Source: an uncultured virus (IMG/VR IMGVR_UViG_3300046327_000028) (Duplodnaviria; Heunggongvirae; Uroviricota; Caudoviricetes). From it: a stretch of 20,000 bases of DNA. Below, one piece after another: positions 95-19,400 of this stretch. Below the pieces are notes generated by a model. The model saw nothing but the letters and a program-made list of their open reading frames with translations. It made no database searches and was not told the DNA's origin. The number at the start of each line of letters is the position of its first letter. The stretch's first letter is position 1. The stretch lies in IMG/VR virus record IMGVR_UViG_3300046327_000028. The stretch is one strand, 5' to 3'. Position numbers and translations under genes: made by a program.

Positions 95-514
95 CTAAAC
101 TATTTCGATATTCTCTGCACCATATAATGCAGTTAATTTCTCTCCTAGTTTTTCATATCCTACTTCAAAAATTGTTTTAGTTTCAAAAGGAGTTAAGTTA
201 GATACATTTTTATAGAATGTTTCTTCCATCTCTGTATCTACACCATCTACTTGTTTAGTAATAGTTTTTGTATACGCAACACGATCAGTCATCTTTAAAT
301 CAATTGATATACCAATCTCTTTGGACTGTAACTTATTAGGATGAATAGTAGAGACATAAGCTGTGTCATACTCAGTAGCAGCTTTATCTTTAAAAACTTC
401 AATGATGAAAACTACATTTCCGTTTTTATTAATATCATATCCTCCGATACGAACGTAAGCACCTATTACGATTCCTTCGTTTGTGCCAATAGCAGTGTTA
501 ATTTTAAAAGCCAT
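95..514 (-). CDS. Hypothetical phage protein, 139 aa (possible tail-fibre-associated or assembly protein by position)
   Basis: Starts 3 nt after the tail fibre stop (TAA ATT ATG) and has protein-like composition. Function inferred from context only. Confidence 0.8.
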   Translation of the reverse strand: MAFKINTAIGTNEGIVIGAYVRIGGYDINKNGNVVFIIEVFKDKAATEYDTAYVSTIHPNKLQSKEIGISIDLKMTDRVAYTKTITKQVDGVDTEMEETFYKNVSNLTPFETKTIFEVGYEKLGEKLTALYGAENIEIV

Positions 515-517
515 AAT

Positions 518-814
518 TTATTTTGTTAATAATTGATTTACTAATAATTTAAGTTCATTAATTTCATTCTGTTGTTCTTTTATAGCTTCTGCAAGAACAG
601 AAACTATTGGACCATAGTTAATATTGTATTCATCAATTTCCTCAGCATATCTAACAGACTGTGGTAATACATCCATTAATTCTTGTGCAATAAAACCAAC
701 GTGTTGTGACTTAGCTTCATCTTTGATGTAATTATAATAAACTCCTCGCATGGCAAGAACTTTATCTAATGCGTTTGTAATAGATGAAATGTTTTCTTTA
801 GCACGTCTATCAGA
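518..814 (-). other. Peptidase S74 / intramolecular chaperone auto-cleavage domain of the tail fibre
   Basis: S1540-D-R-R-A-K1545 (814-797) fits the Ser-Lys dyad pattern SDxRxK. It is followed by GFIAQEL and a terminal heptad region (LAEAIKEQQNEINELKLLVNQL). Confidence 0.9.
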
Positions 815-3800
815 CCAAGTTGTCCAACCGTATTCAGCAGAACCATATTTAACACAACGGAAACCATCTCCTGAATATGTATTATCAGTTCCAATACCCC
901 AACAATTGTTTCCTCTATTATAAAATAATCTCCAAGCCCAATCATCATTGCTAAAGAAACCAAAGTTTCCACTTGTATCTTGCATTAGGTTTGTTACATA
1001 GTTGTTTACAATTACATAACCACCATGTCCACCCCTAGCAGTACCGTATGTTGCTACCTGACCAAAACTAGCCTGATAAGCAGCTCTTAATCCTGCTGAA
1101 TAACTTTCAAAATAAACACCGCTTTCATACCTAATTCTAGCCCAGTCATTAATATATATTGTTTGGAACGTAGGACCATCTGATGTACGAACATATTGAT
1201 TCATATTATATGCATATGAAGAGTTGCTGCTATCTAAAACAACACCTTCTGTTCCTCCACCATTTGCATTTTTACTACAATACAATGTTCCATTATACCA
1301 TCTAAACTGCCAACCATAACCACCTTTATAATGACCAGATTCATTTTCATTCATCATAAGATGCATGCCTGAATCATTAAAATGAATACCAGCCCAACTG
1401 TTTTTTCTACCATTAACCTGCATTGACCCATATGAACCATCCATATTTGGATAAATATGCAATCCATAATATGAAGGCCAGTACATACCAGTTGCCGCAT
1501 TTACTTGAATCCAAGTATTTGCTTGATAGTAACTATTACCAAACTTTCCAAGGTATGTACTTGAATCATAACCTCCTAATGAGGTTGAATTAGATGCGGA
1601 TTCAGCATATCGAGCTGTATCAACACGAACGCCATATGTACCTGCTCCATTCCATCCCATCAATGTAGGATAACTAGGAGACCAGTTTGCAGCATTAGGA
1701 TTAGTATTACTAATAGATGTTCCATCAGGAGATGTGCCAGCAGAGGCATCAAATATAGTATGGTTATTACCATAATTCTTCCATGATAATTGTCCTACTA
1801 CTATATCTCCAGCACTTCTAGATTGCCAGTTAGTTCTAGTAGGTAAATTATATCCTCCCCATTGAGTTGAATTACTTGCAGTAGTAGCAGTTGCTGCATT
1901 GCCGCTAATACTAATTCCCCAAGTGCCTGAAGCTCCACCACCTGTTAAAGAAGGTGAATACGAAGTATAGTTACTACTATCCAACACTGTTCTCCAAGCC
2001 TGCCAAGTACCTGAGTTTTTACCTCTGATAGCTATCTGACCTGTTCTAAAATCACCGTATATTTGATGGATCCAACTAGAGCTATAAGCAGAAGAGTAAA
2101 GACCACCGTCAGTTTGACCAAATAAACTTACAGAAGTATTATACCCTATCTGATTCTGAGTAACATTATCAGGGTTAATGCCGTTAGCACTACTAGTTAA
2201 TGTTAAGCCTATAACTGATCCTGAAGAACCACTAATAGACCCAGATGATGTAATATAACCACTTGGATTAGTTGAGTTATATGGCGTATAACCTAAAGCA
2301 CCAGTAACATCACCTGAAGTTAATGTAATAGCTCCAGTTCTAGTGTTAAAAGATGTAACACCTGATGCAATGGTCCAGCTTCTATTAGCAGATAGATCAT
2401 AAGTAGTTCCGTTGATGGTTAATGTTCTTGATGTAGGAACATAAGAAGAAAGCTGAGACGTAAGTGCCAATGTACCATCAGCAGCTGGCATAGTATAATT
2501 ATAATTCCCAGCATACAATAAACGAATTGCATTAGCTCCAGTATAAAATCCAATAGCTCCAGTCTCTGCCCAAACACCAGTGTATCCAGTATTAATACTT
2601 ACTTGACCTATGTTCTTTATTTGTAAAGTGTCATCAAGTTTAAATATATTAGACATCGTCTTAATGCCTGCTACTGTTTGATCTCCAGTTAATTTAACTA
2701 CATTAGCATCATTAGCAGGAGTGTATCCTAATACATCAGCAATAGATCTGTTTCTCCACAACTGTGTACCAGCAAGTGTTTGTAAGAATAATCCTTGACC
2801 ATCTGTAGGAGGAGCAGTAATTAATACATCATGTAATTCATTTACTTCAAAACCATTCTGAATGTTTACAAAGATCTCGCCATTATTGGATTGCTTTCTT
2901 GTAACAACACCAATGTAAACCATGTGAGCAGGAGCTACAGGTTTGTTAGCTAGGCCATATAATAATGTACCATTAGGTCCTAACCATACAGGATCACCAG
3001 CAGCACCAGCTGCAGATGTATCTAGTCCTGTAATTAAACCATATGTTACACACTCAACTTGAGCATTTAATGCACCACCTGTTTCTAATAGACCGAAAGT
3101 CTTTGATGATCCTGCTTCTGTAGTATTAGAAGAAGCAGAAACAATCATGTTTGTTCCATCAGCAGATGAAACATATACAGGAGTACCTTTAGTTAATGCT
3201 GCTCCTAGTTTAACTACATTCTTTACTTGTGAAGAGAAGTTGTCAATCCATTGTGTGTTGTAATCTGTAGCGTCAATCTTAGATAAGATTTGACCAGCAG
3301 TACCACCAGCAGGCATAGTTCCTGAAACAGTCCAAGATCTATTAGCTGATAAGTCATACGCTGTACCATTAATAGTTAATGTACGAGTTGTAGGAACATA
3401 TCCACTTAAGTCAGGAGTGTAGATAGGAACATTTAAAACACCTGTAGTAGAGTTATATGTAGCTGCACCAGATGTCCCAGTTGTTGTAAGAGAGATAGCT
3501 GTGCGAGCACGAGCAGGAGTGTAATATAAGTTAGTTAAACCTTCAGGCACGTCAGAAGATACTAATGATACAGCACCTGTGTATCCATTAACAGATACAA
3601 CAGCATCTGTATTGTCCACTTGTTGCCATGCTGTACCATCAAAGATAATCCAGTCACCTAGATTCCAGTCTGTAATACCATCAATGTTCGTAGTTCCAGG
3701 AACACTAACAATGTAATACCAACCAGTTGTACCTACACCAGATGTAAGAGTTGGTGTATTTGTAGAAGCATTCCAAGTTCCCTTATAGATAGAACCACCA

Positions 3801-5431
3801 ACTAAACCATTGATTTGATTCTGTACTTTACCAAATGCTTCTAGAATAGTATCTGTAGCAACTACAGAACCGCCAGTAATGTTAACACCTGTTAATAACT
3901 TACCAGTAACAGCAGGAGTAGATAATGTAATTGCTACAGAACCAGGTCCTGTTGCAGTAGCTTCTCCTGTTAGTGCAGTGATGTAATTACCAGCACCTTG
4001 TTTGTTGTTGAAGGTAGTCCAATCTGTAGAAGAAAGATACCCGTCTGTAGATGCACCAGCTTGAATGATTGATAATGTTCTATCAGCACTTAGATCACCA
4101 CCACCTTGTAAAGGTCCAGTTGTATTAATAGTTCTACTAGTAGTAACATAGCTACCAGCAGGTTGTTTGTTATTAAATATATTCCAGTCTGTAGCACTCA
4201 AATAACCATCTGCTGCTGTCGTTGCTTGAGCAATAGAGATGACGTGGTTTAAGATACTTAAAGGAGAAGATGAAGAAGATATTCTTTCTGTATAAGCTGT
4301 GTTCCAGTTTGTAGAGTTATCTACAAGTGATGTACCCCAACCAGTTCCTGTAGATACAGCAATACCAGCTCCAGGATAAATCATAGAGTCAATACTCCAT
4401 GATCTATTGGCACTTAAATCATAAGTGACACCATTGATTGTAAGTGTACGAGATGTAGGAACTTTGTTATTAAATGTAACCCAATCTACGTTATCTAAAT
4501 AACCATCAGTGCTTGCATCTGCTTTAGGAATAGAGATGTTAGGAGTAGCTCCACCACTAGAAACCAATGGAGCAGAAGCAGTTACGTTCGATACACCAGT
4601 AGCAATGTCCCAATAGATGTCAGATTGTAAATCATGTTGAACACCATTGATACTAAGCTTTCTTGTTTCAGGTGTAGGAACATATCCTAATACAGCTTCA
4701 AGATCTACGTGTGTAATAGGAGCTGCACCAGTTACTTGTCCTTTAGCATTAACTTTAAACTTTAAGAAGCTATTAACTGTATAAACGTTTGTGTTAACAT
4801 CTGATAGAGTTAATGTAGTTTGAGAACCTGTAACTCCCGATCCATAGACATCTCCTACAAAACTAAGAATACCTGACGGTACAACAATAGCTGTTGTTGT
4901 TAATGCTGTAACTCTACCTTTTGTATCTACAGTTACTACAGGAATACGTGTACCAGATCCGTAAGTGCCTGGGTTTGAGTTAACTACAGCTAGAGAAGCA
5001 TTCACTGATCCAGGACCAGCAGCAATAACATCACCTGTCAATGCTGTAATATAATTACCTGCAGCCTGATATGCTGTGCCATCTAATGTACCATCACCCT
5101 TTACAAACTGTGAAGCATTTCCACCAGTTGTGATATGTTTAGCAGCTCTTACATTACCTGTGAATGTTAATGTATAATTACCACCAATAGATATGTCAGT
5201 TGTAAGGTTTCCACCCAATCCTACAGGAGCACCTACTACAGATTGGTATACACCATTAGTAAACGTGTATCCCACCATTGCATCCCCAAACTTAGCATCT
5301 ATCTTTTGTAGAGCAGTTTGTACAGAGTCATTGGTAGTAATACCAGTGTACATTAGTGTACCACCTTCGTAGAATACGCAGGTAGCATTCAATATTACTG
5401 GGCACAAGTCAGCCGTGCATAATACATCCAT
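518..5431 (-). CDS. Long tail fibre / receptor-binding protein with C-terminal intramolecular chaperone (peptidase S74), 1637 aa
   Basis: T/G/S-rich shaft with several internal repeat families, W/Y/G-rich distal region, and a C-terminal SDRRAKENI...GFIAQE...INY...coiled-coil signature. Confidence 0.92.
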   Translation of the reverse strand: MDVLCTADLCPVILNATCVFYEGGTLMYTGITTNDSVQTALQKIDAKFGDAMVGYTFTNGVYQSVVGAPVGLGGNLTTDISIGGNYTLTFTGNVRAAKHITTGGNASQFVKGDGTLDGTAYQAAGNYITALTGDVIAAGPGSVNASLAVVNSNPGTYGSGTRIPVVTVDTKGRVTALTTTAIVVPSGILSFVGDVYGSGVTGSQTTLTLSDVNTNVYTVNSFLKFKVNAKGQVTGAAPITHVDLEAVLGYVPTPETRKLSINGVQHDLQSDIYWDIATGVSNVTASAPLVSSGGATPNISIPKADASTDGYLDNVDWVTFNNKVPTSRTLTINGVTYDLSANRSWSIDSMIYPGAGIAVSTGTGWGTSLVDNSTNWNTAYTERISSSSSPLSILNHVISIAQATTAADGYLSATDWNIFNNKQPAGSYVTTSRTINTTGPLQGGGDLSADRTLSIIQAGASTDGYLSSTDWTTFNNKQGAGNYITALTGEATATGPGSVAITLSTPAVTGKLLTGVNITGGSVVATDTILEAFGKVQNQINGLVGGSIYKGTWNASTNTPTLTSGVGTTGWYYIVSVPGTTNIDGITDWNLGDWIIFDGTAWQQVDNTDAVVSVNGYTGAVSLVSSDVPEGLTNLYYTPARARTAISLTTTGTSGAATYNSTTGVLNVPIYTPDLSGYVPTTRTLTINGTAYDLSANRSWTVSGTMPAGGTAGQILSKIDATDYNTQWIDNFSSQVKNVVKLGAALTKGTPVYVSSADGTNMIVSASSNTTEAGSSKTFGLLETGGALNAQVECVTYGLITGLDTSAAGAAGDPVWLGPNGTLLYGLANKPVAPAHMVYIGVVTRKQSNNGEIFVNIQNGFEVNELHDVLITAPPTDGQGLFLQTLAGTQLWRNRSIADVLGYTPANDANVVKLTGDQTVAGIKTMSNIFKLDDTLQIKNIGQVSINTGYTGVWAETGAIGFYTGANAIRLLYAGNYNYTMPAADGTLALTSQLSSYVPTSRTLTINGTTYDLSANRSWTIASGVTSFNTRTGAITLTSGDVTGALGYTPYNSTNPSGYITSSGSISGSSGSVIGLTLTSSANGINPDNVTQNQIGYNTSVSLFGQTDGGLYSSAYSSSWIHQIYGDFRTGQIAIRGKNSGTWQAWRTVLDSSNYTSYSPSLTGGGASGTWGISISGNAATATTASNSTQWGGYNLPTRTNWQSRSAGDIVVGQLSWKNYGNNHTIFDASAGTSPDGTSISNTNPNAANWSPSYPTLMGWNGAGTYGVRVDTARYAESASNSTSLGGYDSSTYLGKFGNSYYQANTWIQVNAATGMYWPSYYGLHIYPNMDGSYGSMQVNGRKNSWAGIHFNDSGMHLMMNENESGHYKGGYGWQFRWYNGTLYCSKNANGGGTEGVVLDSSNSSYAYNMNQYVRTSDGPTFQTIYINDWARIRYESGVYFESYSAGLRAAYQASFGQVATYGTARGGHGGYVIVNNYVTNLMQDTSGNFGFFSNDDWAWRLFYNRGNNCWGIGTDNTYSGDGFRCVKYGSAEYGWTTWSDRRAKENISSITNALDKVLAMRGVYYNYIKDEAKSQHVGFIAQELMDVLPQSVRYAEEIDEYNINYGPIVSVLAEAIKEQQNEINELKLLVNQLLTK
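2375..4684 (-). repeat. Dispersed tail-fibre repeat family A: VPT(S/T)RTLTINGxxYDLSANRSW
   Basis: Close copies at 2375-2443, 3332-3400 and 4397-4462. Divergent copy at about 4610-4684 (ETRKLSINGVQHDLQSDIYW). Related GGGDLSADRTLSI variant at about 4067-4150. Confidence 0.9.
3935..5059 (-). repeat. Tail-fibre repeat family C: GNYITALTG(D/E)xxAxGPGSV, 2 copies
   Basis: Copies at 3935-3991 and 5003-5059. Confidence 0.85.
4001..4537 (-). repeat. Tail-fibre repeat family B: (I/L)SIxxAxxxxDGYLxxxDWxxFNNK, 3 copies
   Basis: Copies at 4001-4075, 4166-4240 and 4463-4537, each 25 aa. Confidence 0.9.
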
Positions 5432-5521: not shown

Positions 5522-8500
5522 TTAGCGTCTTTGTACTTCGCTGCTAACTTTCATACCCCATTCTTTAGCACCTGCTGGCCAAACATAAGGAAGAATTTCC
5601 TTTTGGAATTGTGATGGACCAGGAATAATATCAAATACGGCTTTACCAAAGTATGTATCTTCTTTCAATTCTTCATCACTTGTTACAGTGCCATACATCT
5701 CTTTTGTTCCTGTAGTAATAATCTTCATTGCTTTACTAGCAATGGTCATACCTGGAATCAAGTTACCGTTCGTAAAACCTTCAACTGATAGAGGGTTGTA
5801 ATAGAAGTTAACCTCTTCCGCAGTCTTATACATAATCTTAGCTAACCACTTCCATCTATTTTTAGTTAAGTCATCTTCCTCATCATCATCATCTCCAAAG
5901 TGTTTAGTTCCAAAGTATAACGCTAATGTAAGAAGTACCACCTGTGCTTCTTTAAATTGGTCACTAACAGCTTTACGCATCATGTCATAAAACTCTTCAT
6001 TAGTAATTTGTAACTCTTCTCCAGTCTTCTCAAAGTAATCATCACGCTTAGCATCTAGCAACTCTTGCATGATTTTTAAACCCTCATCAGTACCATTCAT
6101 TATATCGATAGCTCTGTTAATTGTAGATTTACCATACTTGAATAATAGTTTACCAAACAAACGCGTTCTACCATATTCCCAACGTTGTTGCTTAACGTTA
6201 TATTTAATATCCTTAGCACGAAGTGAGATTTGTTTAGGAATCCAGCCTTTGAACATCATGAACGCATTAGCCATTGTATCACGAGTGTAACCAGCTTTGT
6301 CTTCTTGACTCATCTGACCACTCATGTCTCTATAGTTATCTCTAACTGTAATACGATATTTAGCAATCTCTTCATCACTAACACCAGGAATAGTTACATA
6401 GTCATCTTTGATTTCAGCAATCTTTAATAAAGACTTTGTATCCTTCAGTTCTTGTACACGATCTTCAAATGTTTTTTCTAATGCAGCACGTTCTGATTCA
6501 TTCATTTGATATTTAGCAGCTCTATCTTGCTGTATTAAATACTGACGAATGTTTACAAGCTTGCCATCTAAAACCATTGTGTTTTCATTAAACGTCATAG
6601 CATTTGCTATTTGTAAACGTTTTTCAGGTAATGAACTTGTAACCATCATTGCATCTTGGAATGTCCAAGTCTTTAACCATTTTACAGGAGATTGTTTCCA
6701 CGCAATTTTTCTTCTTTCTTCTGTAGCAACATCTTCGTTAAGAGGCATGATTAAATCTAATAATCCTTTTTCCATATCAGACATTAATCCTGGAATTATT
6801 GCACGGGCATTATTCTTTTCAAATTCTCTGAATCTATAGAAGTTACCAGCATTAATGTATGCTTGGAACTGTACACCAAACCAGTTAGGAATACCTACAG
6901 AAAGTTTAAGTGCTGTTCCTAACATCTGTGTCCAAGTACTTAGTGATCCTAATATTTTTTTAGCACCAAGCTTTCTACGTTCTTTGTCTTCTTCAAGTCC
7001 ACCTGTTTTATCAAACGCTACTTTAATGTGTTTGTTTGAAATAGAGTTTTCACTCTGATTGATGCCAAGTATGTAAGTGTTGTAGATATCTTGTAGATAC
7101 TCGATGTTTCTATTCTCAGCAGTAACCATAGGTTCACCCATATCATTAAGTAACTCATTGTCTTTATTAGTCATTAAGTTACCCTTGTTTTTGTCTACTG
7201 CAATAATACTTAGAAGTACATCATCCATTTGATTTCTAAGCTCATATTCATTGATTGCTTTAATCCACAATGGAACTACCTTAGTTAAGTCTGTAGATAG
7301 CTGATGTGCTTTTCTATCTGTGAATGTAAAGTATCTAGGAATATCTCTTACTTCTTTACCAGTTTCACGATTCACTTTACCAAGAGCTCTTTCTTCAGCC
7401 ACTCTAACTGTGTACGTATCTTTGAAGAAGTCTCCAAGATTACCACCTACATTATTTAAGTCTGAGAACTTATCTACAAGTAATGCATCCATCAAAGCAA
7501 AGAATGAACTATCTGCTTTACCAATATACCCCATGTCTTGAGCCTTTGCATTCAATCCTTCTACAATAAACTTCCAAAGATCTAATGCTGCTGGAGACAT
7601 AGCTTTGTATTCTTTAGATGCATTCTTATCTGTATCAATAGAATCATAAAAGATCTTATAGAATAGACCATCGTAAAATCCATTGAATGATTCACGATCT
7701 ATTAAAATTCTATCTTTTAAACGATCTATACGTCTTGCTTTTTCCTCATCATCTAAATTAGGATCAGAATCAATAGCAAGAATACCATTGTCTAAAACTT
7801 CTTTAGCAGTTGCGTCATATTTAGCTTTATCTATAACGTTTAAGAAAAATTCTTTGTCTCTGTTTTCTTTAGCCTTGTTAATTTTTTCTTGGAAATCCGT
7901 GCCCAATTTCTCAATGTATCTAGGCAATCCTTTACCATCTCTTGTACCAACAAGATCAAATACATCAACTCCTTTAGCTTGAGCTTCTTTTTGAGCAGCC
8001 AGTAACACTTTCTCAAATGCTCTAATCTGTAAACCAACTTGTCTATCTGTATTGTTCTTACCAATATCCCAGATACGTTGCATTAAGTTAGCAGCACGAG
8101 AAGCAATATTTGCTCCTTCAGTCATCAACTTATCAAATCCACTAAGCTCTCTTTCAGGATTAAGAATACTACCTTCCTGAATCATCTCTCCTGCCATTGC
8201 ACGCTTGACACTTTCTACAGGATCTTCTCTTGTAATACCGTAGTTAACAGAAAGTTGAACAACATATAATTGTCTGATAGTCAATGCATCAGCTAATAGT
8301 GCTTCTGTTCTAGTTGCTAAACGTTCTAAGTCAGATAACACTTGTTTCTCTTCTTCAGACAGTTGTTTGTCTTTATTTGCATAAATAAATACATCAGCAA
8401 TCTCTTGATACTTACTAGCACCTTCTGTAACATAGTTTAGTTCCTTTAGAACTTCTTGCATCTCTGAAAGAGACATTGTTGAGAAGTCTTTATGTTTAAT

Positions 8501-10438
8501 TTTATCAATTACTGCTCTACCGTTATTTAAAAATGTATTACCGATAGAAGAGATAGGAGCAAAGTCCATCTGTAAGTGAAGCTTACGAATAGCTTTGGCT
8601 AACTCTTGACGTTGTGTATCTTTTAAGTATTGTTGTTTAGGATCTACAATACGTCTAACAAACTTATCATATTGATCTCTCAATGCTTGAATCAATTTAT
8701 CTAAACGCTTGTTTCCAGTAGATTCAAAATCCACAGGCACAGGAAGTAAATATAGCTGTGTCTCTTTAGGATTGTCTAAATCACCAATCTCAACAGATTC
8801 TAAAAACAATGGACTATTGTAATCTTCTGGAATGAAGTTTTCATAGTTAGCTTTCATTGGAATCATTCGAGCTTTACGAATCTGAGAAGGTTTCAATCCA
8901 TAGCGTTGAAGTATTTTTACATACTCATTCATCTGCTTCTTGTACTCACCTTGTTTAAACCAAGGTACGTCTTCTGTTTTCTCTAAGTCAATAGTTGTAG
9001 TTTTCCAGTCTAACACCTCAACATAGAAAGATTTACCATCTTCAGTAGGAACAACAGCCATAAAGTCAAGTGTAGAAGCTACATCATCTTTCTCATTAAT
9101 TACATATTCTTCACTAATGAATCTAGTTCCTTCTGGATAAGAGTTAATTACTTTCTCCAAGAAACCATCTAATATTTCTGTAACTTCTGGACTTAGATTA
9201 GTTGTTGCTTTATAAGGAGTTGGTACAGGTTTTTTATAACCATCTTTGTCCAAGAAAGAATTCTTAGCCATCTGCTCAAGATAACTATGTACATCAGATC
9301 CCCAATATTGTTTTTGATTATCTATAAGCTTCTGAGCATCTGTACGAACAAACTTCTGTGACTCTAAACGTTTGATCCATTTAGTTACACTATGTTTAAT
9401 ACGTCTACCATCAATTGTATAGTGACGATCTTCTGGATCAGAATCAACCAAACGCATACGTTTAGCTATACCACTGAACTTATCAAAGAATCCATTTAAC
9501 TTTTCTTGTCCTGTTAGTTCTGTCTTTTGATATAAAACATCTTCACTACGAACATCATCTGCTGTACCAATCTCTTCTCCAGAGATAATCTTCATAGAGG
9601 CTTCATCAAATCCTGATGTAGAGAATAGATCACGTAATGACGCAATGATTGATTCCCACCAAGTTAATGCTTTCTCTAACAACTCAGGCTTTTGTGTAAT
9701 GCCTTCGTTCTGTTTGATCACAGTTTCAGATAACACTTTACCTATGGCTTCTGTTTTAAGTTTTACAATATCAGGTTTACCATCTTTACCTTGGTAATCA
9801 GGATCAGTTCCGTATTGATCTAATACTTGTTTGTAGATAGCGTAGTCATTGATCTCTTTCAACATCTTAGCAAATAGCTTAGGATATTTCTGTTTGATGA
9901 TCTCTACAGCCCAGTGCATGGTTTCTTCACCTAATGCAACATCTTCTTTACCATTAACAATCTGCACTAACTGTTGTGTAAACACAGCAGCACCGTTGGC
10001 ATTTTGTTTAACACCATCACTTACAATCTCATTTACATTAGAAATGCTAACACCAATACGATTTAAGAAATCCTTTAATAGTTTAATAGTTGCAGGAGAA
10101 GCAACAGATCCTTCTGTTCCTTCTTTTTGAAACATATAATTATCTGTGTATTCTATACCAGCTCTTTTTGCATCTTGTTTCTGAACATTAGCTGCTTCTC
10201 TTTCCTCAACACGTAACTCATGTGCATAGTATTTATCTACTAGCTCATCAGGTATATTGATGTCTCTAATAATTTCTCTATCAGCATTTTGAGAAAATGT
10301 AACAACTTGAAATCCAAAGTCTTTATTAACTTGCTCTGCTATACCTTTAGCAGCAGGCAAAGATCTATTGAAGCCAGGATCAGTCCTAGCTTCAATTGTA
10401 CCATTGATATTTTTTCTTATTTGTATTTTACAAGGCAT
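5522..10438 (-). CDS. Large putative virion cargo/ejection protein, 1638 aa: degenerate zincin-like domain + PD-(D/E)xK nuclease + helical C-terminal region
   Basis: EETMH (9928-9914) with downstream EAIG (9751-9740). Nuclease motifs SVT, GSDVH, SEE, TLDF, DWKT and QMNEY in the expected order. Starts 12 nt after the RNAP gene stop. Confidence 0.85.
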   Translation of the reverse strand: MPCKIQIRKNINGTIEARTDPGFNRSLPAAKGIAEQVNKDFGFQVVTFSQNADREIIRDINIPDELVDKYYAHELRVEEREAANVQKQDAKRAGIEYTDNYMFQKEGTEGSVASPATIKLLKDFLNRIGVSISNVNEIVSDGVKQNANGAAVFTQQLVQIVNGKEDVALGEETMHWAVEIIKQKYPKLFAKMLKEINDYAIYKQVLDQYGTDPDYQGKDGKPDIVKLKTEAIGKVLSETVIKQNEGITQKPELLEKALTWWESIIASLRDLFSTSGFDEASMKIISGEEIGTADDVRSEDVLYQKTELTGQEKLNGFFDKFSGIAKRMRLVDSDPEDRHYTIDGRRIKHSVTKWIKRLESQKFVRTDAQKLIDNQKQYWGSDVHSYLEQMAKNSFLDKDGYKKPVPTPYKATTNLSPEVTEILDGFLEKVINSYPEGTRFISEEYVINEKDDVASTLDFMAVVPTEDGKSFYVEVLDWKTTTIDLEKTEDVPWFKQGEYKKQMNEYVKILQRYGLKPSQIRKARMIPMKANYENFIPEDYNSPLFLESVEIGDLDNPKETQLYLLPVPVDFESTGNKRLDKLIQALRDQYDKFVRRIVDPKQQYLKDTQRQELAKAIRKLHLQMDFAPISSIGNTFLNNGRAVIDKIKHKDFSTMSLSEMQEVLKELNYVTEGASKYQEIADVFIYANKDKQLSEEEKQVLSDLERLATRTEALLADALTIRQLYVVQLSVNYGITREDPVESVKRAMAGEMIQEGSILNPERELSGFDKLMTEGANIASRAANLMQRIWDIGKNNTDRQVGLQIRAFEKVLLAAQKEAQAKGVDVFDLVGTRDGKGLPRYIEKLGTDFQEKINKAKENRDKEFFLNVIDKAKYDATAKEVLDNGILAIDSDPNLDDEEKARRIDRLKDRILIDRESFNGFYDGLFYKIFYDSIDTDKNASKEYKAMSPAALDLWKFIVEGLNAKAQDMGYIGKADSSFFALMDALLVDKFSDLNNVGGNLGDFFKDTYTVRVAEERALGKVNRETGKEVRDIPRYFTFTDRKAHQLSTDLTKVVPLWIKAINEYELRNQMDDVLLSIIAVDKNKGNLMTNKDNELLNDMGEPMVTAENRNIEYLQDIYNTYILGINQSENSISNKHIKVAFDKTGGLEEDKERRKLGAKKILGSLSTWTQMLGTALKLSVGIPNWFGVQFQAYINAGNFYRFREFEKNNARAIIPGLMSDMEKGLLDLIMPLNEDVATEERRKIAWKQSPVKWLKTWTFQDAMMVTSSLPEKRLQIANAMTFNENTMVLDGKLVNIRQYLIQQDRAAKYQMNESERAALEKTFEDRVQELKDTKSLLKIAEIKDDYVTIPGVSDEEIAKYRITVRDNYRDMSGQMSQEDKAGYTRDTMANAFMMFKGWIPKQISLRAKDIKYNVKQQRWEYGRTRLFGKLLFKYGKSTINRAIDIMNGTDEGLKIMQELLDAKRDDYFEKTGEELQITNEEFYDMMRKAVSDQFKEAQVVLLTLALYFGTKHFGDDDDEEDDLTKNRWKWLAKIMYKTAEEVNFYYNPLSVEGFTNGNLIPGMTIASKAMKIITTGTKEMYGTVTSDEELKEDTYFGKAVFDIIPGPSQFQKEILPYVWPAGAKEWGMKVSSEVQRR
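8900..9400 (-). other. PD-(D/E)xK (RecB/Cas4/lambda-exonuclease-like fold) nuclease domain
   Basis: SVT (9391-9383), GxxxH384 (9301-9287), E443 (9112-9110), D458 (9067-9065), D477-W-K479 (9010-9002), Q502xxxY506 (8935-8921). Confidence 0.8.
9640..10080 (-). other. Zincin-like metallopeptidase fold with EExxH in place of HExxH (boundaries approximate)
   Basis: NANGA..beta-strand..EETMH (aa 171-175), E230 in EAIGK, then a WWESIIASLRDLF helix like those ending phage zincin modules. Confidence 0.6.
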
Positions 10439-10450
10439 AGTTATAAACCG

Positions 10451-13400
10451 TTAACAAGTTTTAGGAGATCTATTAATAGCAGGTAATCCTTCTGGTTGAT
10501 TCTCATCGAATAAAGATAGTTGTGAAGATACAACTTTTTCTGTAGATTTCTTTGCAGGATTCAGTTGATTTTCTAAATCTTTAATCTCATTCATGATATT
10601 CTCATAAGGAGTCTTCCATGTATCAGGATAGTTAGATAAGAATTCTTCTAGTGCTTCTACTGCAAATGTATCATCAACTTCCATACTAGAAGCTTGGAAA
10701 GCTTGACTAGCTAATGAATCATAAGAGTATGCACCTTTTGTACTAGTGTATGCTCCGTTTGTACTAGCTGATCTTCTGTTTCTATCTACTAACTTATCAA
10801 ATGAACCAGGTTTAATTCTAGCTCCTGATTTGAAATAGTTATAGAAGATACCGTCTGTACTAAACTCAAATGCTTCAAGTTTATTCTTAGCCATTTCTAG
10901 CTTTTCAAGAATCTCAATGTTTGCAGGTTTCTGTTCTACAGGAGATGTTTCAGCAACTGGTTGAGCAGCTACAGGAGCTATAGAAGTTTCTGAATATCCT
11001 ACAAGCTTACCTTGGTTATCTAAAGCTTTAATGATTGCATCATCGCTGTATTCTTTATCTACCTTTACTGTACCATTGTTCAACTCAGACTTCTGTAATG
11101 TATTTTGATATTGAGTTAAGAATCTTCCATCACCATATAAGTTAACAAGCTTGAACACATATTGCTCAGGAGATGTTTTACTCATCTTCATCTTTACAGG
11201 CATTCCATTACGGTACTTAACTTTTTGGTAGCCATACACTTTGTTGTATATGTTCTCATCCTTCTGCAATTGTATAGCAAGATCAGATGGTTGTACTGTG
11301 TATCCTGATTCAAAATCAACAAGCTCTCCTTCTTTAGTATATGTTCCTCTTGTAATAGTTACAAAATCATAACCAGCTCCTTTAGATTTTAATCCTAATC
11401 CGATTAAATCTCTAGAAGATTCTTTGTTAGCTCCATTAAATGTTATAGCAGATGGGAAAGCATATGCTTCAATGATATCTCCAAATGGTAAATATATATC
11501 AGCTTCTGGAACACTTCTCATTGGAGGATTAATTCTAGGAGCAATGTTAGGATCATTGAAGTTAGTTCTTTGGAATCTAACATTCTCATAGAAATCTTTC
11601 AACCTGTTCTCTACACCTGGAGTGTTTATAGCTTTTGTAATCTCTGCGGATACATCCTCTTGAGGCATCACTTCTTTAAACGACACAGCTGTTTTGTATG
11701 TGCCTTGTACAATAGCAAGATTAAGAAGACTCTTATACAAGTCATTTGTTTCAGGATTATCTCTTAACTCTCTGAATGCTTCTGTATATCTATCAACATC
11801 AGCAGAACTATCAGCTGCTACTTTTAGAGCAATTGTAGAAGGAGCATTGATTGTCTTACCTGGAATAACTTCTAGATCTTGTAAGATCTTCATGTTAGGA
11901 TAAGCCTCTACAGCTTTCTGGAATTTATTAATTACAGAATCTTCACCATACACAAGATTAGGAATATCAAAGTTGATATTAGTTTGAATGATATAATCTA
12001 ATAATGATCCAGATAACTTATTTGCAATCTTAGAAAAATCAATTGGAGATATAAAATCATTCATCGCATACGTATCAATCACTTGATTAATAACTGCTCT
12101 GTAATCAGGAGTGTTAAAACGTAAGATTTTTCCAAGTCCTCTATTAGCTTTTGTAAGACCATCAACTAATGAACGCAAGTGTGTCTTATCTAATAGATCT
12201 TTAGCAGAAGAAATTCTAAAGCTATCTTGAGCAAACTTATATTGCGTAAGAGTTTTGATTTGCTTTCTTCTGAAATCATCAGCATTAGATGACTTGAATG
12301 TATCGTAGTTAGTAGCTTCTGTTATAATGAATAATCCATTAGCTGCTTTAGCTACACTAAAGAACTCTTGTAAGATTAATAACTGTTCAGCCTTTTGATC
12401 TTCTGTTAATTTCTCAACACCAATATTCTTATCAAGATTATTAACATCGATCTCTTCAGTTCTTTCTACAGCATCCTTTGATGCTGCATACTTCGATTTA
12501 ATAGAATCAATCAATGTAGACTTCTCTGCAGTCATCTCAGTTAGTATATACTTACCGTCTGCATCTGCTGTAGTTACAAAGTCTTTAACAATTGGTTGAT
12601 TCAAGAAGAACATAGCTTGCTTAATGTTAACTCCTGCTCGTGTTAAGAACATTGCAGGGCTTACAACTGCATTACTATAGATTAACTTAAAGATGAATGG
12701 ATCAGAACCAGCATCAGCAAATGCACTAGTAAACTCTGATAAGATATCAGAAATGTAGTTCTTAGTTCCTGCAAAGAAACGTTGAGAAAGATCTACTTTA
12801 CCATCAGCAGTTTTATTGTGTGGTAATGACATCTTAAATACATGATCTACAAACAATCCAGACTTCTGTGCAAGAGAAAGACCTGTAGTAGCAGTAGCAC
12901 TAATACCAATCCAGCTCTTACCCTTTTGGAAAGCGTAACGCAAGAATGACATATACTGTCTATCTAAAATTCTATTCTTGATCTTGCTCTCATCATAGTT
13001 TGTTAACTCATCCATTTTATTAGCAATACCCATTAGGGTATCTGTAGTGTTAGGAGTAGTTAAACGTTCGAAGTTTTCTGGAAGAGCTAATAAGTCATCG
13101 ATAGCTGAATAGTATTCATTCTCAATAGCTTGTCTGTACATTTTATCTACAGTATTTTGCTTATTGATAATCTTATCATTAAGTTCTTCTTGTCTAGTAG
13201 TTAGTTTTTGTCGGGCATCTACATCTTCAAGATCAACTTCTTCAAACTTTTTAGAAAGAAAGCGTTGTTCTTTGTCACTCAATTCATCAAACACTTGGCT
13301 ATAGAACTGCTTAGTAGCTTCTTCAGAACCTTTGTATTCAATAACTTTAATATTACCTTTAGAATCTTTGTACAATGCTTTCATGTACAGATTCAACTTA

Positions 13401-16400
13401 TCAATATCAAAGTCAGATCCTGCTTTAGTTGTGATCTCTGAAGGAACAACTACAGTGGTACCCATGAACTCAGGAAGAATTCCTTTGATCTTAATACGCT
13501 CCATTGAGTTCAATCCTTGTGTAGGAATACGGAATCCAATAGCAATCAATGCGTCTGGAGATGCTGTGTTTAAGTATTTAACAATAGCATCCTCATCAGA
13601 AAATCTTTTCTTATCACTAAATAAAGCTCTAGCCTGTGGAGTAAGTGTAACAAAAACTTGGCAGTAACGTAAGCCTTCCTCATCCTCATAGAACTTAAGA
13701 GTATCATCTGTAAGAACTTTCTTACCATTGATCTCTACAACTCTTCTACCTTTAGATAAATCTTCCCAACCTGTTACAGGAGTTTGTACAGCTGACATAC
13801 CATTAACCTTTGGAGAAATGATTCTCTTGTGGATAATAGAATATAACAAACGTACAATCTGCATGTAGTTAGGAGATGATTCTAATGGTGTATTAAAATC
13901 ACCAGTTTCAGGATTAATTTGAAGACTCTCAATTAAGTTATTAGATGCACCATCGTCAAGCAATTGCTTACGCAATACACTAGCTACTTTTTCTTTGTTA
14001 GCTAATACAAACTCACCATCCTCAATAGTAATACCTAACTCATTCAATAATGAATCAGCACCTTCTGTGTACAATCTCTTTAGAGCATTATCATGTCTCT
14101 CAACAGCTTCTTTAATAACTTGTTGTCTTTCAGGAGTATCACCAATAGCTTCACCACCAGAGAACAAGTCAATAGTAGCAATCTTAGTAGGTTGAGAACC
14201 TAACGTCTGACCTTTCTTATCTTTGTATCCTGTTTCAACTTGAATACCATAAGCTGTGAATGGAATCTGAATTAAGTTATTCATTGGCTCATCATTGATT
14301 TTGCCATCCTTGTATAACTCATACATTGATTCTATACCAAACTTAGCACCTGATTGCATTACAACGTAATCAAGTTTCTCATTAAACATCTTGATAAATA
14401 CATCCTCAAGAGCAGTACCTTCTATAGCTTCAAAGTATAGAGGCATTTGTGACATCTTGTGTCCGATAAGATCAATATTAGTTGCATTAAGTTTGACACC
14501 AGCTACAATAGGTTTAGTTACATCTATAACAAACTTAGGAGAAGGCTTAGATGTTAACTCCTCATCGTATTTCTTTAATGCAGGTTTATCTTTATATCCT
14601 TTGTATACTGGTTCTCCATTTACTTGTCTAGCAGCTAGTTTTTTTCTAGCATAAGCCATTTGCCAGTTGTGGAAATCATTAGCTTGATCACTCCACTGAC
14701 CGTTCTTAGTTTTAACTTCTCTATAGAATCCTGCATCCATGTAAGAGAAACCATCAGCCTCCTTAGTGTCTACGCCTGGATACAATCCACCTTCTATAAT
14801 AACCTCTTCAATTACTGCTGTATTGATGTATGATTTACTTTCATGATATCCGTAATCTGTATCATCTAAATCAATATAGTTATCATCTTCAAGCTCAATT
14901 GCATTGTTAGATTCATTTAACCAACTATTCAATGCAGGGTAATCAATAGCAAACTTTCTTGGAGACAAGAACATCTTGATACGCTTAGTCTCTTCTAAAA
15001 TTACTTTACCATTCTTCTCCTTAACTCCAAATTGATACGGATCACCAAATATAATTTTGTGAAATTCAATATTGTTTAAGATGTAATTACTTGAAAGGAA
15101 TTCAGAAATAAGATTCAAATCTCCTTCAGTCATCTTATTTGCATTGATTCCACTAATTGCTTTAATGTCATCTTGGAAAAGTGCATCCAATTTCTTGAAT
15201 GAATAGAACACTTCACCCTCTTTAGATTGAGGAGAAGTAGTTACTAACTTAAGATCTTTAAGTTTATTAGTTACATCTTCTGCAGAATCACTTAGATACT
15301 TTGTAATGCTTTCTGTAATCTTAGCATCGTTAGTAGATAATACTTCTTGTAATTCATTTCTGAATTTCTTTTCTTTAAGATCACCTGATACACGTTGCTC
15401 AATCAAAGAAGTGATTTCATTATTCAAACTTTCTGGAAGGATGTCTTTAAAGAAACGTAATTCTGTAGCTTTTTTCTCAACGTTCAATAATTTCTTTCTA
15501 TTCTTAGCATCTAAAGCTAATTCAATATCAGCATCTAAATGCTTTCTCATCATGGCAATAGCTTCCTCAGATCCTCTACCTTCAGCAAATTGCTTATAAG
15601 AAATACGATTACCTAAGTTCATCATCCACTCTGTAGATGAATCTGCAGGAATTAAGATGTAATAACTACCCTTGATGTTTTGATTGATTTGTGTAATGTA
15701 GCTATCAGCTTCACTCATTCCTGAGATACCAGAACCTTCATTCTCATCTGTATCAATCTCACCAGAGATTACTTGAACTCTTAACTCAGTGATGTTACCA
15801 TCTTCATCTACAATTCTTTCGCCATCCTCATTAAAGAATAATCCTCCTTGTTTTAAAATGTCAGAACTTGCAGAGAATACATCTAGCAAATGAGGCATCT
15901 TATCTTTGATCTCAGACAAGTTCATGATTGAATTGAACTGATACTCAAATACTGAAGGATAGTTGCTCTCAGTCAAAGTATTGATGCGCTTACCCTCAGC
16001 GTTGTAGATGCTATTGTTTTGATTTGGCATTTCTACAGCTGTAAATAAATCAGCTAGTCTAGCAATACCATTTCCTAATGTTTTGAATTTACCTTTCTTT
16101 AATGAAACAACACCTTTCTTCTTACCAGAAGTGATGTCAGCTTTCATTTTGATTACAGCTTTCTCAAACTCTTTCTTCTGTACATCACTTAATTTATCAT
16201 AGATAGATGGAGTGAATGTAATACCGATCTTGTTAAGGAAGTCAATAGAGTTTTCTGGGATGTTATCACCATCTACTTCATATTGTTTTTGCTCTCTATT
16301 GTATTTAATAATAGATGATTCAATCTTAGAAGCTATGATCATGTTATTGATCCAACGCTTCTCAACTTGCTTAGCACCTGTAGATAAATCAGCAGCACCG

Positions 16401-19400
16401 CGGAATGTAGAATCTTCTTTCAAATACTGAATGAACATCTCTGGCTTAGCTTTAGTGTACGTCTGCATTGCAGAAATAAACAATCTGTGCTCAGCATCTT
16501 CAAAGTTATCAAAGTCAATCTTACCAGTAACCATGTTACCGCCAAGCTTTACAAACAGCTGTACGTAGTCAGCATTTGACTTAGCGATGTCATACAACTT
16601 ATTTACAAAGTCATCAACGTTCTTGATGTTAACCAATCGATTAACCAATACACTATATACTTCGCTCTCAGGGATTAACTCTACTGTATCATATGCTTCA
16701 TTGATTTTAGGATTTGGAAGCATTGTAGGATCCTCAGATTGTTTACCATCTGTTCTTAACAATGAGCTATTTAAAATCTTAACTGCATATGGTGTAGATT
16801 TCTTTAAGTTAACACTGAATGCTTCAGGAGCATATAACTTATCTGACGCACCTTCATCATTAATTGTTACTATTTCTTCAGCATCAAATGAAATGTATAA
16901 ACCATTAAGCTGACGTTTGGTAGCATCAATGATTTCCATGTATTGTTCATCTGTATACTGAGCTCCTTTATTCTTGTATGTATCTACAATATTCTTGAAG
17001 ATAGCATTAGCAGAAGTCTTATCGAAGTTAAACAATGATGCAGTATCTTTAAATAATGAAAGATAAAATGCTGCTTTAAAGTCTTCAGTTAGATAATACT
17101 TTTGTTCTGCAGATAACTCTGGGAACACAGGATATCCATTTCTTTTCTTGCGTTGCTTAGGGGTAATTTGTTGATTCAAGAATTCTTGAGCAACACCTAC
17201 ACCAGTATTTGGAGCACCTGTAGCTTCTTCTAATTGCTCAGACATGAATGTCAATAAGTCATTGAACTTAGAATTAGAAAGTCCTACAACTTTAGAAATC
17301 AATTCTACTAACTGAGTGAATAGATTTTTCTTAGCATACGCAGGTGTAGTTCCTGGCATAAGCTTTAGGAACTTAATCATATCAGGATCTGTAAGACCCA
17401 TTGTAGCCATCTCTTCTGGAGACTTAGCAATATAGTCTAATGCCTGACGAAGATATGTAATCTGTGGTTTAGAGAAGTTATCAGCTATAAGTTTAGCTGC
17501 TTTTTTATCAACACCTGATACACCTTTGTGGAAATAATCTTCTACACTTTGATAGATATCAGTTAAGCCTTTATATAACTCAGTGCCTTTTACATCACCT
17601 TTCTCATTAAGTCTAATCTTAATTAAGCCGTGTGTAAACTCATGAGCAATAACATATTTCTGTTCAGCTTTTGTTTTCTTATCAAATGCAGCTCTATTGA
17701 TTGTTAATATAACTTCATACTTACCATCAACTAATTCAGAATCAATAGAAGCAACACCAGGAAGTTTACCTCCTCTATGTGCAGCATCGTATGATACTTG
17801 AATGTTATTATCTATTAAGATTGGAGTGATGAATTTAAACTCATCAGTTAATCCGTAGTTATCTAATACTTCATTAAGACTTTCTAATTGTCCAACAGCT
17901 GAAGTAGTTGGTACTTCAGGAACTACAGCAGCTTTTACTTCATTAGCAAGTTGATTAGCAACAGCATTGTTAGCTAACTTCTCAGCTGTTCTAGCTAATG
18001 ATAGACGTAACTCATCAGGATCTGCTTTAGCAAACTCAGGCTTTTGAAGTAATTTAAGAACACCTTCTGCTAATTCACCATTTAAGAACTCTGGAGAAAG
18101 ATCTAATGTAGCTTTTGTACCATCGTGAGTAAATGTAAATACAACTCCTTGTAGTTCAATCTTATTAGGATCTGTACCATTTGTAGCGTACTTAGTAGGA
18201 GCTGTGTTAACTGGATTAGTTGCACCAAGCTCTTTCTTAATTTCCTCAGCTACAGCACGTAGCATGTCAGATAATAATTTTTCTGGATCTTGTTTAGCTA
18301 GTTCAGGATCACCAGCCATAGCTCTTTGTACTCTTTCTTCTACGGCAGTTTGCATATTTGCATCAGCTGTAAACTTAAGTCCTTCTGGTCCGTATGTAAA
18401 TTTAAAATCAATACCAAATACATTCATGGTATTAACTTTCTTACCAGTTAAGTCATACTTAGTAACTTGTGGATTTGCTAACTGTAAGTTAGTAGGGAAT
18501 GCGTACTTCTGCTCATAAACATATGGTACAGATTCTGTAGGAACTGTAATGTTAACTGTAAGAGGAGGAGCTGTAGTTCTCTTAGTTTTATTATCTGGCA
18601 TTACATCAGATAACAAATATGTTTGATAGTTCTTCCACTTACGCTCTTTCAATTCTTTACCATCCCAGAATTGTTCATAGAACGATTCGTTGAAATACTT
18701 AGTTAGTAATTCATTACTAGTGTTTGTATAAACATTAGATAACTTCTCAATGATTTCTTTCTTCTGACCTTCAACATCAGAAAAGTCAAAGTTTGTACCA
18801 GCAATATTAATCTCAGCTGTGGCGTAATTAATATAGAAAGAGTTGTTTGTTACTTTCTTAGAGCTCCAGAATAATACAGCTTTAATGTAGTTTAATAACT
18901 TAGCATTCTCTTTCTTCTTCTGATCTGTGGACATAGAAGTATCAGCAAACACATTGTGTAGCTTCTTCAATACCTCAACAAATGTAACAGCTTGATTAGG
19001 AGTGATCTTATCGTTCTGTAAGTATTCTAACTTATCACCGTATTTCAATACAGGTCTACCGACAGCAAACTTGTAACTCATACCGTTCTTGTGAACAATA
19101 TATCCTAATGTAGATACTTCGATAAGACCTTGTACACCTGAGATTACAGATTGTTTAATCTTACCAAATACTTCAGAGATAGGATTGTGTTGAACATTAC
19201 CTTTTTCTCTTACAGCAAAACCTTTAGATAAATCAAACTCATAAGAATCTATAGATTGTCCTGGTTGATACTCAGCTTTAAATAACTCTGCACGTTTATC
19301 TTTCCATAATTCTCTATAATGCTTAATGACTTCAGGATCATCACTAGATCTACCTTCACCATCTGTTGTAGGAGTTGTAGAGAAGATTGTTTGTTTGATA

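Follow-up and report, generated by a model that had tools for sequence, protein, structure and literature searches.

The window analysed here is the whole stretch of 20,000 nucleotides (nt) from the uncultured virus IMGVR_UViG_3300046327_000028 (Caudoviricetes), and the subject of this work is the junction between two of its genes, which encode a giant virion RNA polymerase (RNAP) protein, A, and its downstream neighbor, B. Only three cysteines (Cys) are present in the 4820 amino acids (aa) of A and B that the window contains, and two of these occupy the facing termini, namely the last residue of A and the third residue of B. The pair is conserved among the relatives of A and B, it is tied to the boundaries between the proteins, and it is lost when the genes are fused. 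We consider it reasonably probable that a reversible disulfide joins the C-terminus of A to the N-terminus of B in the virion. The features of the junction are as follows.

10451..19999, minus strand: protein A, the giant virion RNAP protein; its 5' end lies outside the window and 3182 aa are visible
5522..10438, minus strand: protein B, 1638 aa, the counterpart of ΦcrAss001 gp49 and phi14:2 gp65 (RNAP-associated protein)
10454..10456, minus strand: TGT, encoding the C-terminal Cys of A (residue 3182 of the visible part and 4074 of the full-length protein P0121)
10451..10453, minus strand: TAA stop codon of A
10439..10450, minus strand: spacer of 12 nt between A and B
10430..10438, minus strand: ATG CCT TGT, coding for Met1-Pro2-Cys3 of B and holding its only Cys
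13661..13663, minus strand: the only internal Cys of A (RYCQV, visible residue 2113), within the RNAP part

Cysteine Depletion and Placement in the Window

A computed count bears out the original prediction, in which two Cys had been assigned to A and one to B, with two of the three at the facing termini. The Cys residues of the visible part of A are residue 2113 and the last residue, 3182 (..RSPKTC, followed by TAA), and the full-length protein, P0121 in the protein collection (4074 aa), likewise contains two. The single Cys among the 1638 aa of B is residue 3 (MPCK..). Its codon lies at 10430-10432 and the ATG of B at 10436-10438, the interval 10430-10456 extending exactly from the Cys3 codon of B through the last Cys codon of A.

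The background Cys rate was taken from the non-cargo open reading frames (ORFs) of G001, the complete 119-kb genome of a relative. The five cargo-block proteins of this genome contain 5 Cys in 8,931 aa, as compared to 342 in 26,217 aa (1.30%) for the other 79 ORFs. At the latter rate, about 63 Cys are expected in the 4820 aa of A and B, and the probability of finding three or fewer is ~2e-23. Given the counts, the presence of Cys within the last 7 residues of A and the first 5 residues of B has a probability of ~1.3e-5. Both the depletion and the terminal placement are far beyond chance, and the avoidance of Cys, which the original prediction had associated with proteins that must unfold to pass through the tail, is specific to the cargo block. 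A local contrast is provided by the tail-fiber protein C, encoded next to B, which has 7 Cys in 1637 aa.

Conservation of the Terminal Cysteines

The A family was represented by 120 homologues of the C-terminal region of A among the matches listed, which are 29-100% identical, 1990-5183 aa long, and include the window protein; the counts for A homologues given below refer to this set. A Cys is located 0-6 residues from the C-terminus in all 120 of them (distance 0 in 39 homologues, 1 in 37, 2 in 18, 3 in 7, 4 in 13, 5 in 2, and 6 in 4), and the tails around this Cys are unrelated, as exemplified by SPKTC, YKKTC, ILKSIC, NQNNCG, NDCPIPF, PNPCGQ, DPFTC, KCKI, and NECY. The total is 234 Cys in 483,231 residues. 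In an alignment of 25 A homologues, the terminal Cys forms an invariant column.

As to the remaining Cys of this family, most homologues have a second one ~900-1500 residues from the C-terminal end, with the consensus RYCEI, while 26 of the 120 have a single Cys, and gp66 of phage phi14:2 lacks the internal one.

The same pattern was looked for, as the original prediction had suggested, at the start of the RNAP gene and the end of its upstream neighbor. It is absent there, as none of the 120 homologues has a Cys in its first 15 residues and the protein upstream of the A homologue in G001 is devoid of Cys, which suggests that a chain of linked proteins would begin at A.

The search with B returned 181 homologues at E<=1e-3. 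A Cys within the first 11 residues is found in 114 of the 116 full-length B homologues and is the sole Cys in 104. The first 600 residues of B were also searched against 1.84 billion cluster representatives (50% identity), which gave 587 matches at E<=1e-3; the best 150 of these 587 contributed 147 new sequences, 121 of them of full length, and the N-terminal Cys is present in 114 of the 121. In two of the seven misses (P0339 and P0353), the start is placed too far upstream, and an internal MAC or MKC follows. C3 does not vary across an alignment of 39 B homologues. The sequence ahead of the conserved core, which starts near residue 100 of B, consists of mutually unrelated modules whose length ranges from 30 to over 1000 residues; the Cys nevertheless remains at 3-5, which argues for selection on a Cys at the very end of the protein rather than on a domain.

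One B subclade (P0012-P0018 and P0339) has an additional Cys-Cys doublet ~19 residues from the C-terminus (7-8 in P0339), which hints at a further link at the far end of B in these lineages.

The Cys of B mostly follows a small residue (P, A, S, G, or T), and the initiator Met is removed before small residues, which would leave the Cys near the mature N-terminus. Such a location would suit a separate chemistry of each protein, for example acylation or lipidation for contact with a membrane, or a role of the Cys as a mark for processing or recognition, as an N-terminal nucleophile, or as a redox sensor. However, no signal peptide or lipobox precedes the Cys, no Pfam family covers B at E<=0.01, and the survival of the Cys through swaps of the whole N-terminal module means that it is not part of a conserved catalytic fold. 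Separate roles would moreover leave unexplained the matched C-terminal Cys of the upstream protein and the joint loss of both residues in fusions (see below), and we regard this explanation as very improbable.

Two specific identities were considered and rejected. In a bacterial lipoprotein, the lipobox Cys follows a signal peptide of ~15-25 residues; the Cys at position 3 in the window, at 3-5 in 67 of 68 metagenome loci, and within the first 11 residues in the representatives leaves no room for such a peptide. A zinc ribbon, a zinc hook, or another Cys-cluster metal site was discarded on the grounds that each terminus has one Cys with none nearby and that CxxC is absent.

Cysteine Pairs on the Same DNA

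In the original prediction, the C-terminal Cys of the RNAP protein and an N-terminal M-x(1-3)-C in the downstream protein were expected to be conserved and to occur together. This was examined at 79 metagenome loci, where the start of B was assigned mechanically as the first ATG and an upstream ORF of at least 150 aa was required. The start of B is readable at 68 of the 79 loci, with Cys at residue 3-5 in 67. An upstream ORF is present at 66 loci, and 64 of these ORFs have a Cys within their last 9 residues. Both cysteines are found at 63 of the 66 loci where both ends are readable, in 54 distinct tail/head combinations, and the prediction is thereby upheld.

The three misses can be explained. 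At L021, the start call is over-extended and an internal MAC is present. At L060, an in-frame stop lies 57 codons before the end (about 7700-7900), and the frame continues to a normal ..DEKCK tail. At L084, a GIY-YIG-type homing endonuclease gene (6956-7561) occupies the exact junction of A (..GENC) and B (MSC..). The stop at L060 could be a sequencing error, a nonsense mutation, or a site of read-through.

Of the 63 relatives that have the complete pair, 61 show a gap of -8 to +16 nt between the two genes, and such tight spacing means that the junction DNA could carry signals. The pattern might then be a by-product of a nucleotide signal at the junction (translational coupling), of base composition, or of chance. 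Several observations speak against this. TGT and TGC occur twice in the reading frame of A versus 57 and 215 times in the other two frames, and once in that of B versus 32 and 106 times, showing that Cys codons are common in the same DNA. The distance of the Cys from the end varies in both proteins (0-6 from the C-terminus of A, residue 3-5 of B), in unrelated contexts. Finally, the pair persists across the endonuclease insertion at L084, across gaps of ~470 nt at L045 and L059, and in ΦcrAss001 despite the opposite orientation of gp47. This explanation, to which we give practically no credence, is already contradicted by the data.

Some further loci deserve mention. L046 has a split (985 aa / 1105 aa) without a Cys pair; this is a frameshift inside the RNAP, the stretch GIQV..GSQLTK running on in another frame, and it was therefore rejected as a counter-example. 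At L082 (126-9800), the B-family ORF, with 3224 aa and its only Cys at residue 3, is about double the normal length, and B may here be fused to a downstream protein. At L032 (121-390), an ORF of ~89 aa ending in ..FLSCQG overlaps the 5' end of a separate RNAP gene, whose product starts with MSRLKC, and this small protein may hold the partner Cys in that lineage. A tblastn search with the first 1000 aa of B gave no match in 50,697 phage records, and pattern scans of IMG/VR returned one locus for the tail of A and none for the head of B.

Identity of A and B

The RNAP label given to A in the original prediction holds. Residues 1845-2528 match residues 1038-1729 of the structure of the phi14:2 gp66 RNA polymerase (6VR4_A; phmmer against the Protein Data Bank (PDB), E 3.5e-27), and the catalytic motif is present:

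13400..13414, minus strand: DFDID catalytic motif of RNA polymerase, visible residues 2196-2200 of A

The five residues of the motif (D2196, F2197, D2198, I2199, and D2200) are invariant columns in the alignment of the 25 A homologues; in the available part of the phi14:2 RNAP preprint (10.1101/2020.03.07.982082), the motif is named DFDxD. PHROGs and Pfam assign no family to A.

BLASTP matches residues 88-799 of P0121 to ΦcrAss001 gp47 (E 2e-25) and residues 2640-3437 to gp50 (E 2e-17), and gives a weak match of B to gp49 (E 5e-4); members of the B family match gp49 with E values of 1e-5 to 4e-8. A thus combines in one protein two of the three RNAP-associated cargo proteins of ΦcrAss001, and B corresponds to the third. 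By homology to the ΦcrAss001 and phi14:2 proteins, whose presence in virions is known from proteomics, A and B are probably packaged in the virion and ejected. The closest named phages share 24-27% identity with A, and only across part of its C-terminal third, which indicates that the window derives from an uncultured crAss-like phage only distantly related to these.

The Pair Follows Protein Boundaries

The strongest argument for an end-to-end link is that the Cys pair follows the boundaries between the proteins. In the 10 named crAss-like phages, a pair is found at every boundary of the three-part module, and the numbers of C-terminal and N-terminal Cys in the RNAP module are equal in each of them (1:1 or 2:2). 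In phi14:2, where the module is made of three proteins, the junctions read ..NTIC (g067), MACK....QECK (g066), and MSCK (g065), and these four, namely Cys1797 of gp67, Cys3 and Cys2179 of gp66, and Cys3 of gp65, are the only Cys in 5398 aa. In ΦcrAss001 (NC_049977.1), Cys are located at C2339 of 2341 in gp47, at C5 and C2404 of 2412 in gp50, and at C5 in gp49; gp47 has kept its terminal Cys even though its gene lies on the strand opposite to gp50 and gp49. DAC15 has three separate proteins with the same terminal-Cys pattern as ΦcrAss001. In Fpv1, cr50_1, cr56_1, and cr108_1, the first two parts are fused and one pair is present, as in the window, while in p-crAssphage, crAss002, and cr271_1 the module is split at a different place and the pair is found there (..SFSCM / MSCGN). 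The annotation of crAss002 gp33 (L007, 17088-17190) probably puts its start 32 codons upstream of the true one; the protein has an internal Met33-Ser-Cys, which matches the MSC start of p-crAssphage gp44.

The pair appears with a new boundary and disappears with a lost one. At L045, the N-terminal module of B is a separate protein of 226 aa with Cys at residues 3 and 225, and the extra split has its own new pair (..NNKC / MSC..226 aa..VPCG / MACY). Conversely, there is no Cys where the gp47-like and gp50-like parts of A are joined, and none at all in P0265 (5544 aa), in which all three parts are fused, in the 5'-truncated A-B fusion P0266, or in the fusions of a gp47-like part with B (P0241 and P0378).

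A side observation concerns cr56_1 (L004), whose cargo genes have 7-38 in-frame stops under table 11 and still show the terminal pair (..NNCKGK / MAKGIC). Stop-codon recoding is known for some Crassvirales, and these stops fit it.

These data also bear on the possibility that the terminal Cys make homotypic links (A-A and B-B) or anchor each cargo protein to the portal, the tail barrel, or the inner capsid wall for packaging. There are unbalanced C-terminal Cys on the Intestiviridae proteins p-crAssphage gp47 and gp48 and crAss002 gp30 that would be in line with this, and in ΦcrAss001, according to the available part of the structural report (PMC10172136), tail and hub proteins are disulfide-linked and the cargo protein gp45 touches the portal and the barrel. 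However, separate anchoring of each protein predicts neither the equal counts in 10 of the 10 named phages, nor the joint loss of both Cys in fusions, nor their joint gain at the new split of L045. In addition, the only such link known from a structure, that of cyanophage A4, is heterotypic (PMC12002296, available part). We therefore judge homotypic links or anchoring to be unlikely.

Comparison with Known Ejection Systems

The A4 link provides the closest parallel. According to the portion of the cryo-electron microscopy report that was available (PMC12002296), a disulfide in cyanopodophage A4 (Anabaena phage A-4L) connects Cys1715 of gp27 with Cys5 of gp26, both belonging to the pre-ejectosome. 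In the A-4L sequences, gp27 (1717 aa) has its only Cys at 1715, and the adjacent gp26 (1114 aa) has its only Cys at 5 (MSKHC). The likeness to the window is close: the upstream protein carries its sole or nearly sole Cys at the C-terminal end, and the adjacent one downstream carries its own at the N-terminal end; both A4 proteins are large, capsid-internal ejection proteins, as A and B probably are. On the other hand, A4 is a member of a different family, the Saffermanviridae, lacks a virion RNA polymerase, and shows only one pair. When A-4L gp24-gp29, gp31, gp33, and gp35 were compared with A, B, and ΦcrAss001 gp44-gp50 by BLASTP, no match reached E<=1e-2; the likeness is one of design and not of descent. 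In this one solved case, the terminal-Cys signature corresponds to a real bond. The A4 report, as far as its available text goes, treats the bond as a detail of the structure and does not bring up Cys depletion, conservation, or a rule for splits and fusions (PMC12002296).

The same case bears on a tether of another kind, in which the terminal thiols of A and B would share a metal ion (e.g., Zn, Cu(I), or Fe) with the same reversible end-to-end role. The conservation, boundary, and fusion data suit any end-to-end tether, and a metal bridge, needing no oxidizing milieu, would suit gut phages. Yet each partner contributes one Cys, the variable tails and heads have no conserved His, Cys, Asp, or Glu nearby, two-ligand sites are weak, and the only solved case with the signature is a disulfide (PMC12002296, available part). 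A metal bridge is accordingly, in our estimate, quite unlikely.

ΦcrAss001 has the homologous module, gp47/gp50/gp49, and shares the terminal-Cys pattern with the window; it differs in that its three proteins are separate, with two putative links between them, and that gp47 lies on the strand opposite to the other two genes. The available part of the structural report (PMC10172136) states that the three proteins, with masses of 262.5 kDa (gp47), 276.9 kDa (gp50), and 154.5 kDa (gp49), are detected in virions and are thought to cross the tail partly unfolded, and that inter-subunit disulfides are found in the tail and at the portal vertex; it describes disulfides for the tail, the hubs, and gp57, and none for the cargo. 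The searchable part of its supplements has no mention of gp47, gp50, or disulfide (PMC10172136).

In phi14:2, gp67, gp66 (RNAP, PDB 6VR4), and gp65, which the notes of the phage record give as virion proteins, resemble the window in that A matches gp66 and that junctional Cys pairs are present in three collinear virion proteins. The available part of the phi14:2 preprint proposes that fused forms are cleaved and leaves the activation of the RNAP open (10.1101/2020.03.07.982082).

Coliphage N4 (L100) is like the window in having a giant, Cys-depleted, ejected virion RNA polymerase. Its ejected proteins gp50 (the RNAP), gp51, and gp52 have no Cys in 3500 + 644 + 150 aa (4,294), as compared to 4 and 3 Cys in the neighboring virion proteins gp53 and gp54. 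It differs in having no terminal cysteines at all, and hence no such link. The N4 RNAP is a T7-like single-subunit enzyme, a type different from the crAss-like RNAP. Cys avoidance in ejected proteins is thus wider than the terminal pair.

As for novelty, the original prediction regarded such a link as undescribed. For Crassvirales this stands, in that no description of a terminal-Cys link was found in a literature search outside which most subscription journals lay, but the kind of link is known already from A4, where it was seen by cryo-electron microscopy (PMC12002296, available part). What is new here is the presence of the signature throughout the order of crAss-like phages, its extension to the virion RNA polymerase and to chains of three or more proteins, and the rule for splits and fusions.

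Proposed Mechanism

We propose that A and B are packed in the capsid and would be injected ahead of or with the DNA. Their terminal thiols would form an inter-protein disulfide in the virion, giving one nearly unbranched thread of ~5,700 residues, in which the disulfide would take the role played by a peptide bond at this position in relatives whose genes are fused. The purging of internal Cys would avoid wrong cross-links or loops that block the partly unfolded passage through the portal and the tail. In the reducing cytoplasm of the host, the link would be cleaved, and the RNA polymerase and its partner would be freed.

A number of points weigh against this proposal. The bond of this kind that has been demonstrated is that of A4, which is unrelated to the crAss-like phages; the ΦcrAss001 map does not resolve the cargo, the available text of that report makes no mention of the terminal cysteines (PMC10172136), and the available part of the phi14:2 RNAP preprint mentions neither cysteine nor disulfide (10.1101/2020.03.07.982082). 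Many Crassvirales replicate in the anoxic gut, which puts the oxidized state of the thiols in nature in doubt. Sequence alone cannot tell a head-to-tail link from A-A and B-B pairing, a metal bridge, or other links in the virion. The types of tail and head are not strictly one-to-one, YKKTC or YKIKC tails being paired, as judged from contigs of equal length, with both MPCKIEIRK and MATCPNK heads, and the co-variation may therefore be mostly shared descent. Among the B proteins, P0032, P0034, P0337, P0379, and P0368 have no N-terminal Cys and are not recognizable fusions, P0368 appearing to be truncated at its start. Finally, the head-to-tail rule leaves unexplained the unpaired terminal Cys on smaller Intestiviridae cargo proteins: p-crAssphage gp47 (857 aa, L006) has its sole Cys one residue from the end (..KQSCR), p-crAssphage gp48 (L006) has one near its C-terminus (..YRCGGHRR), and crAss002 gp30 (L007) has its sole Cys 7 residues from the end (..LFRCGGKKKIA), the next protein lacking an N-terminal Cys in each case. 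A complex prediction for the last 220 residues of A and the first 220 residues of B, run on single sequences without alignments, gave a score of 0.02, with an uncertain fold of the partners, and speaks neither for nor against the link.

A broader and more tentative version of the disulfide proposal, which we put forward as a possibility, is that of a "protein train". Injected proteins would be disulfide-joined after translation into a thread of 5,000-7,000 residues in gene order and with 1:1 stoichiometry; they would exit through the tail from N to C, each drawing the next, with reduction in the cytoplasm as the switch. It would apply to the crAss-like phages and, independently, to A4-like cyanophages. 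With a disulfide replacing the peptide bond, the splitting or fusing of genes would be nearly neutral, which would account for the many architectures of the module.

Other Features of the Window

The large ORFs of the window are all on the minus strand, and the gene order of the module is A, B, tail fiber. The remaining features are the following.

8816..9448, minus strand: PD-(D/E)XK-type nuclease-like region of B, residues 331-541; weak match to phrog_298 'exonuclease', E 6e-6
518..5431, minus strand: protein C, tail fiber, 1637 aa (tail-fiber PHROGs and Peptidase_S74)
95..514, minus strand: ORF D, 139 aa

The alignment of the 39 B homologues has invariant residues at D458, D477-W478-K479, Q502, and Y506, a pattern that resembles a PD-(D/E)XK/RecB-type motif. 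A nuclease-like B would travel with the injected RNA polymerase. Several A homologues have extra enzyme domains in the precomputed Pfam assignments, namely PF08719, PF13532, the group PF13538/PF05970/PF13604/PF13245, and PF25176; one PF08719 carrier is named 'predicted NAD-dependent protein-ADP-ribosyltransferase YbiA (DUF1768 family)' by one source. The giant A protein seems to be a carrier of variable injected enzymes.

The tail-fiber protein C starts with MDVLCTADLCPVILNATC, which contains a Cys5/Cys10/Cys18 motif (window 5378-5419, minus strand). The same spacing opens the downstream proteins at L012, L032, and L059 and in G001 (76697..), and is shifted at L046 (3, 8, 16). The motif may be an anchor that is disulfide-bonded into the tail hub, by analogy with the fibers of ΦcrAss001, whose N-termini dock at the tail hub according to the available part of the structural report (PMC10172136).

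Implications

The Crassvirales include the most abundant human gut viruses. If the proposed link is real, it would be a chemically simple way for these phages to fix the stoichiometry of their cargo proteins and to eject them in order, and the reduction of the bond in the cytoplasm would be a possible trigger for freeing the polymerase. It would also explain how the same module comes to be encoded as one, two, three, or more genes. A giant protein that is free of Cys except for one at its terminus could also serve to flag ejected proteins, and their order, in uncultured phages.

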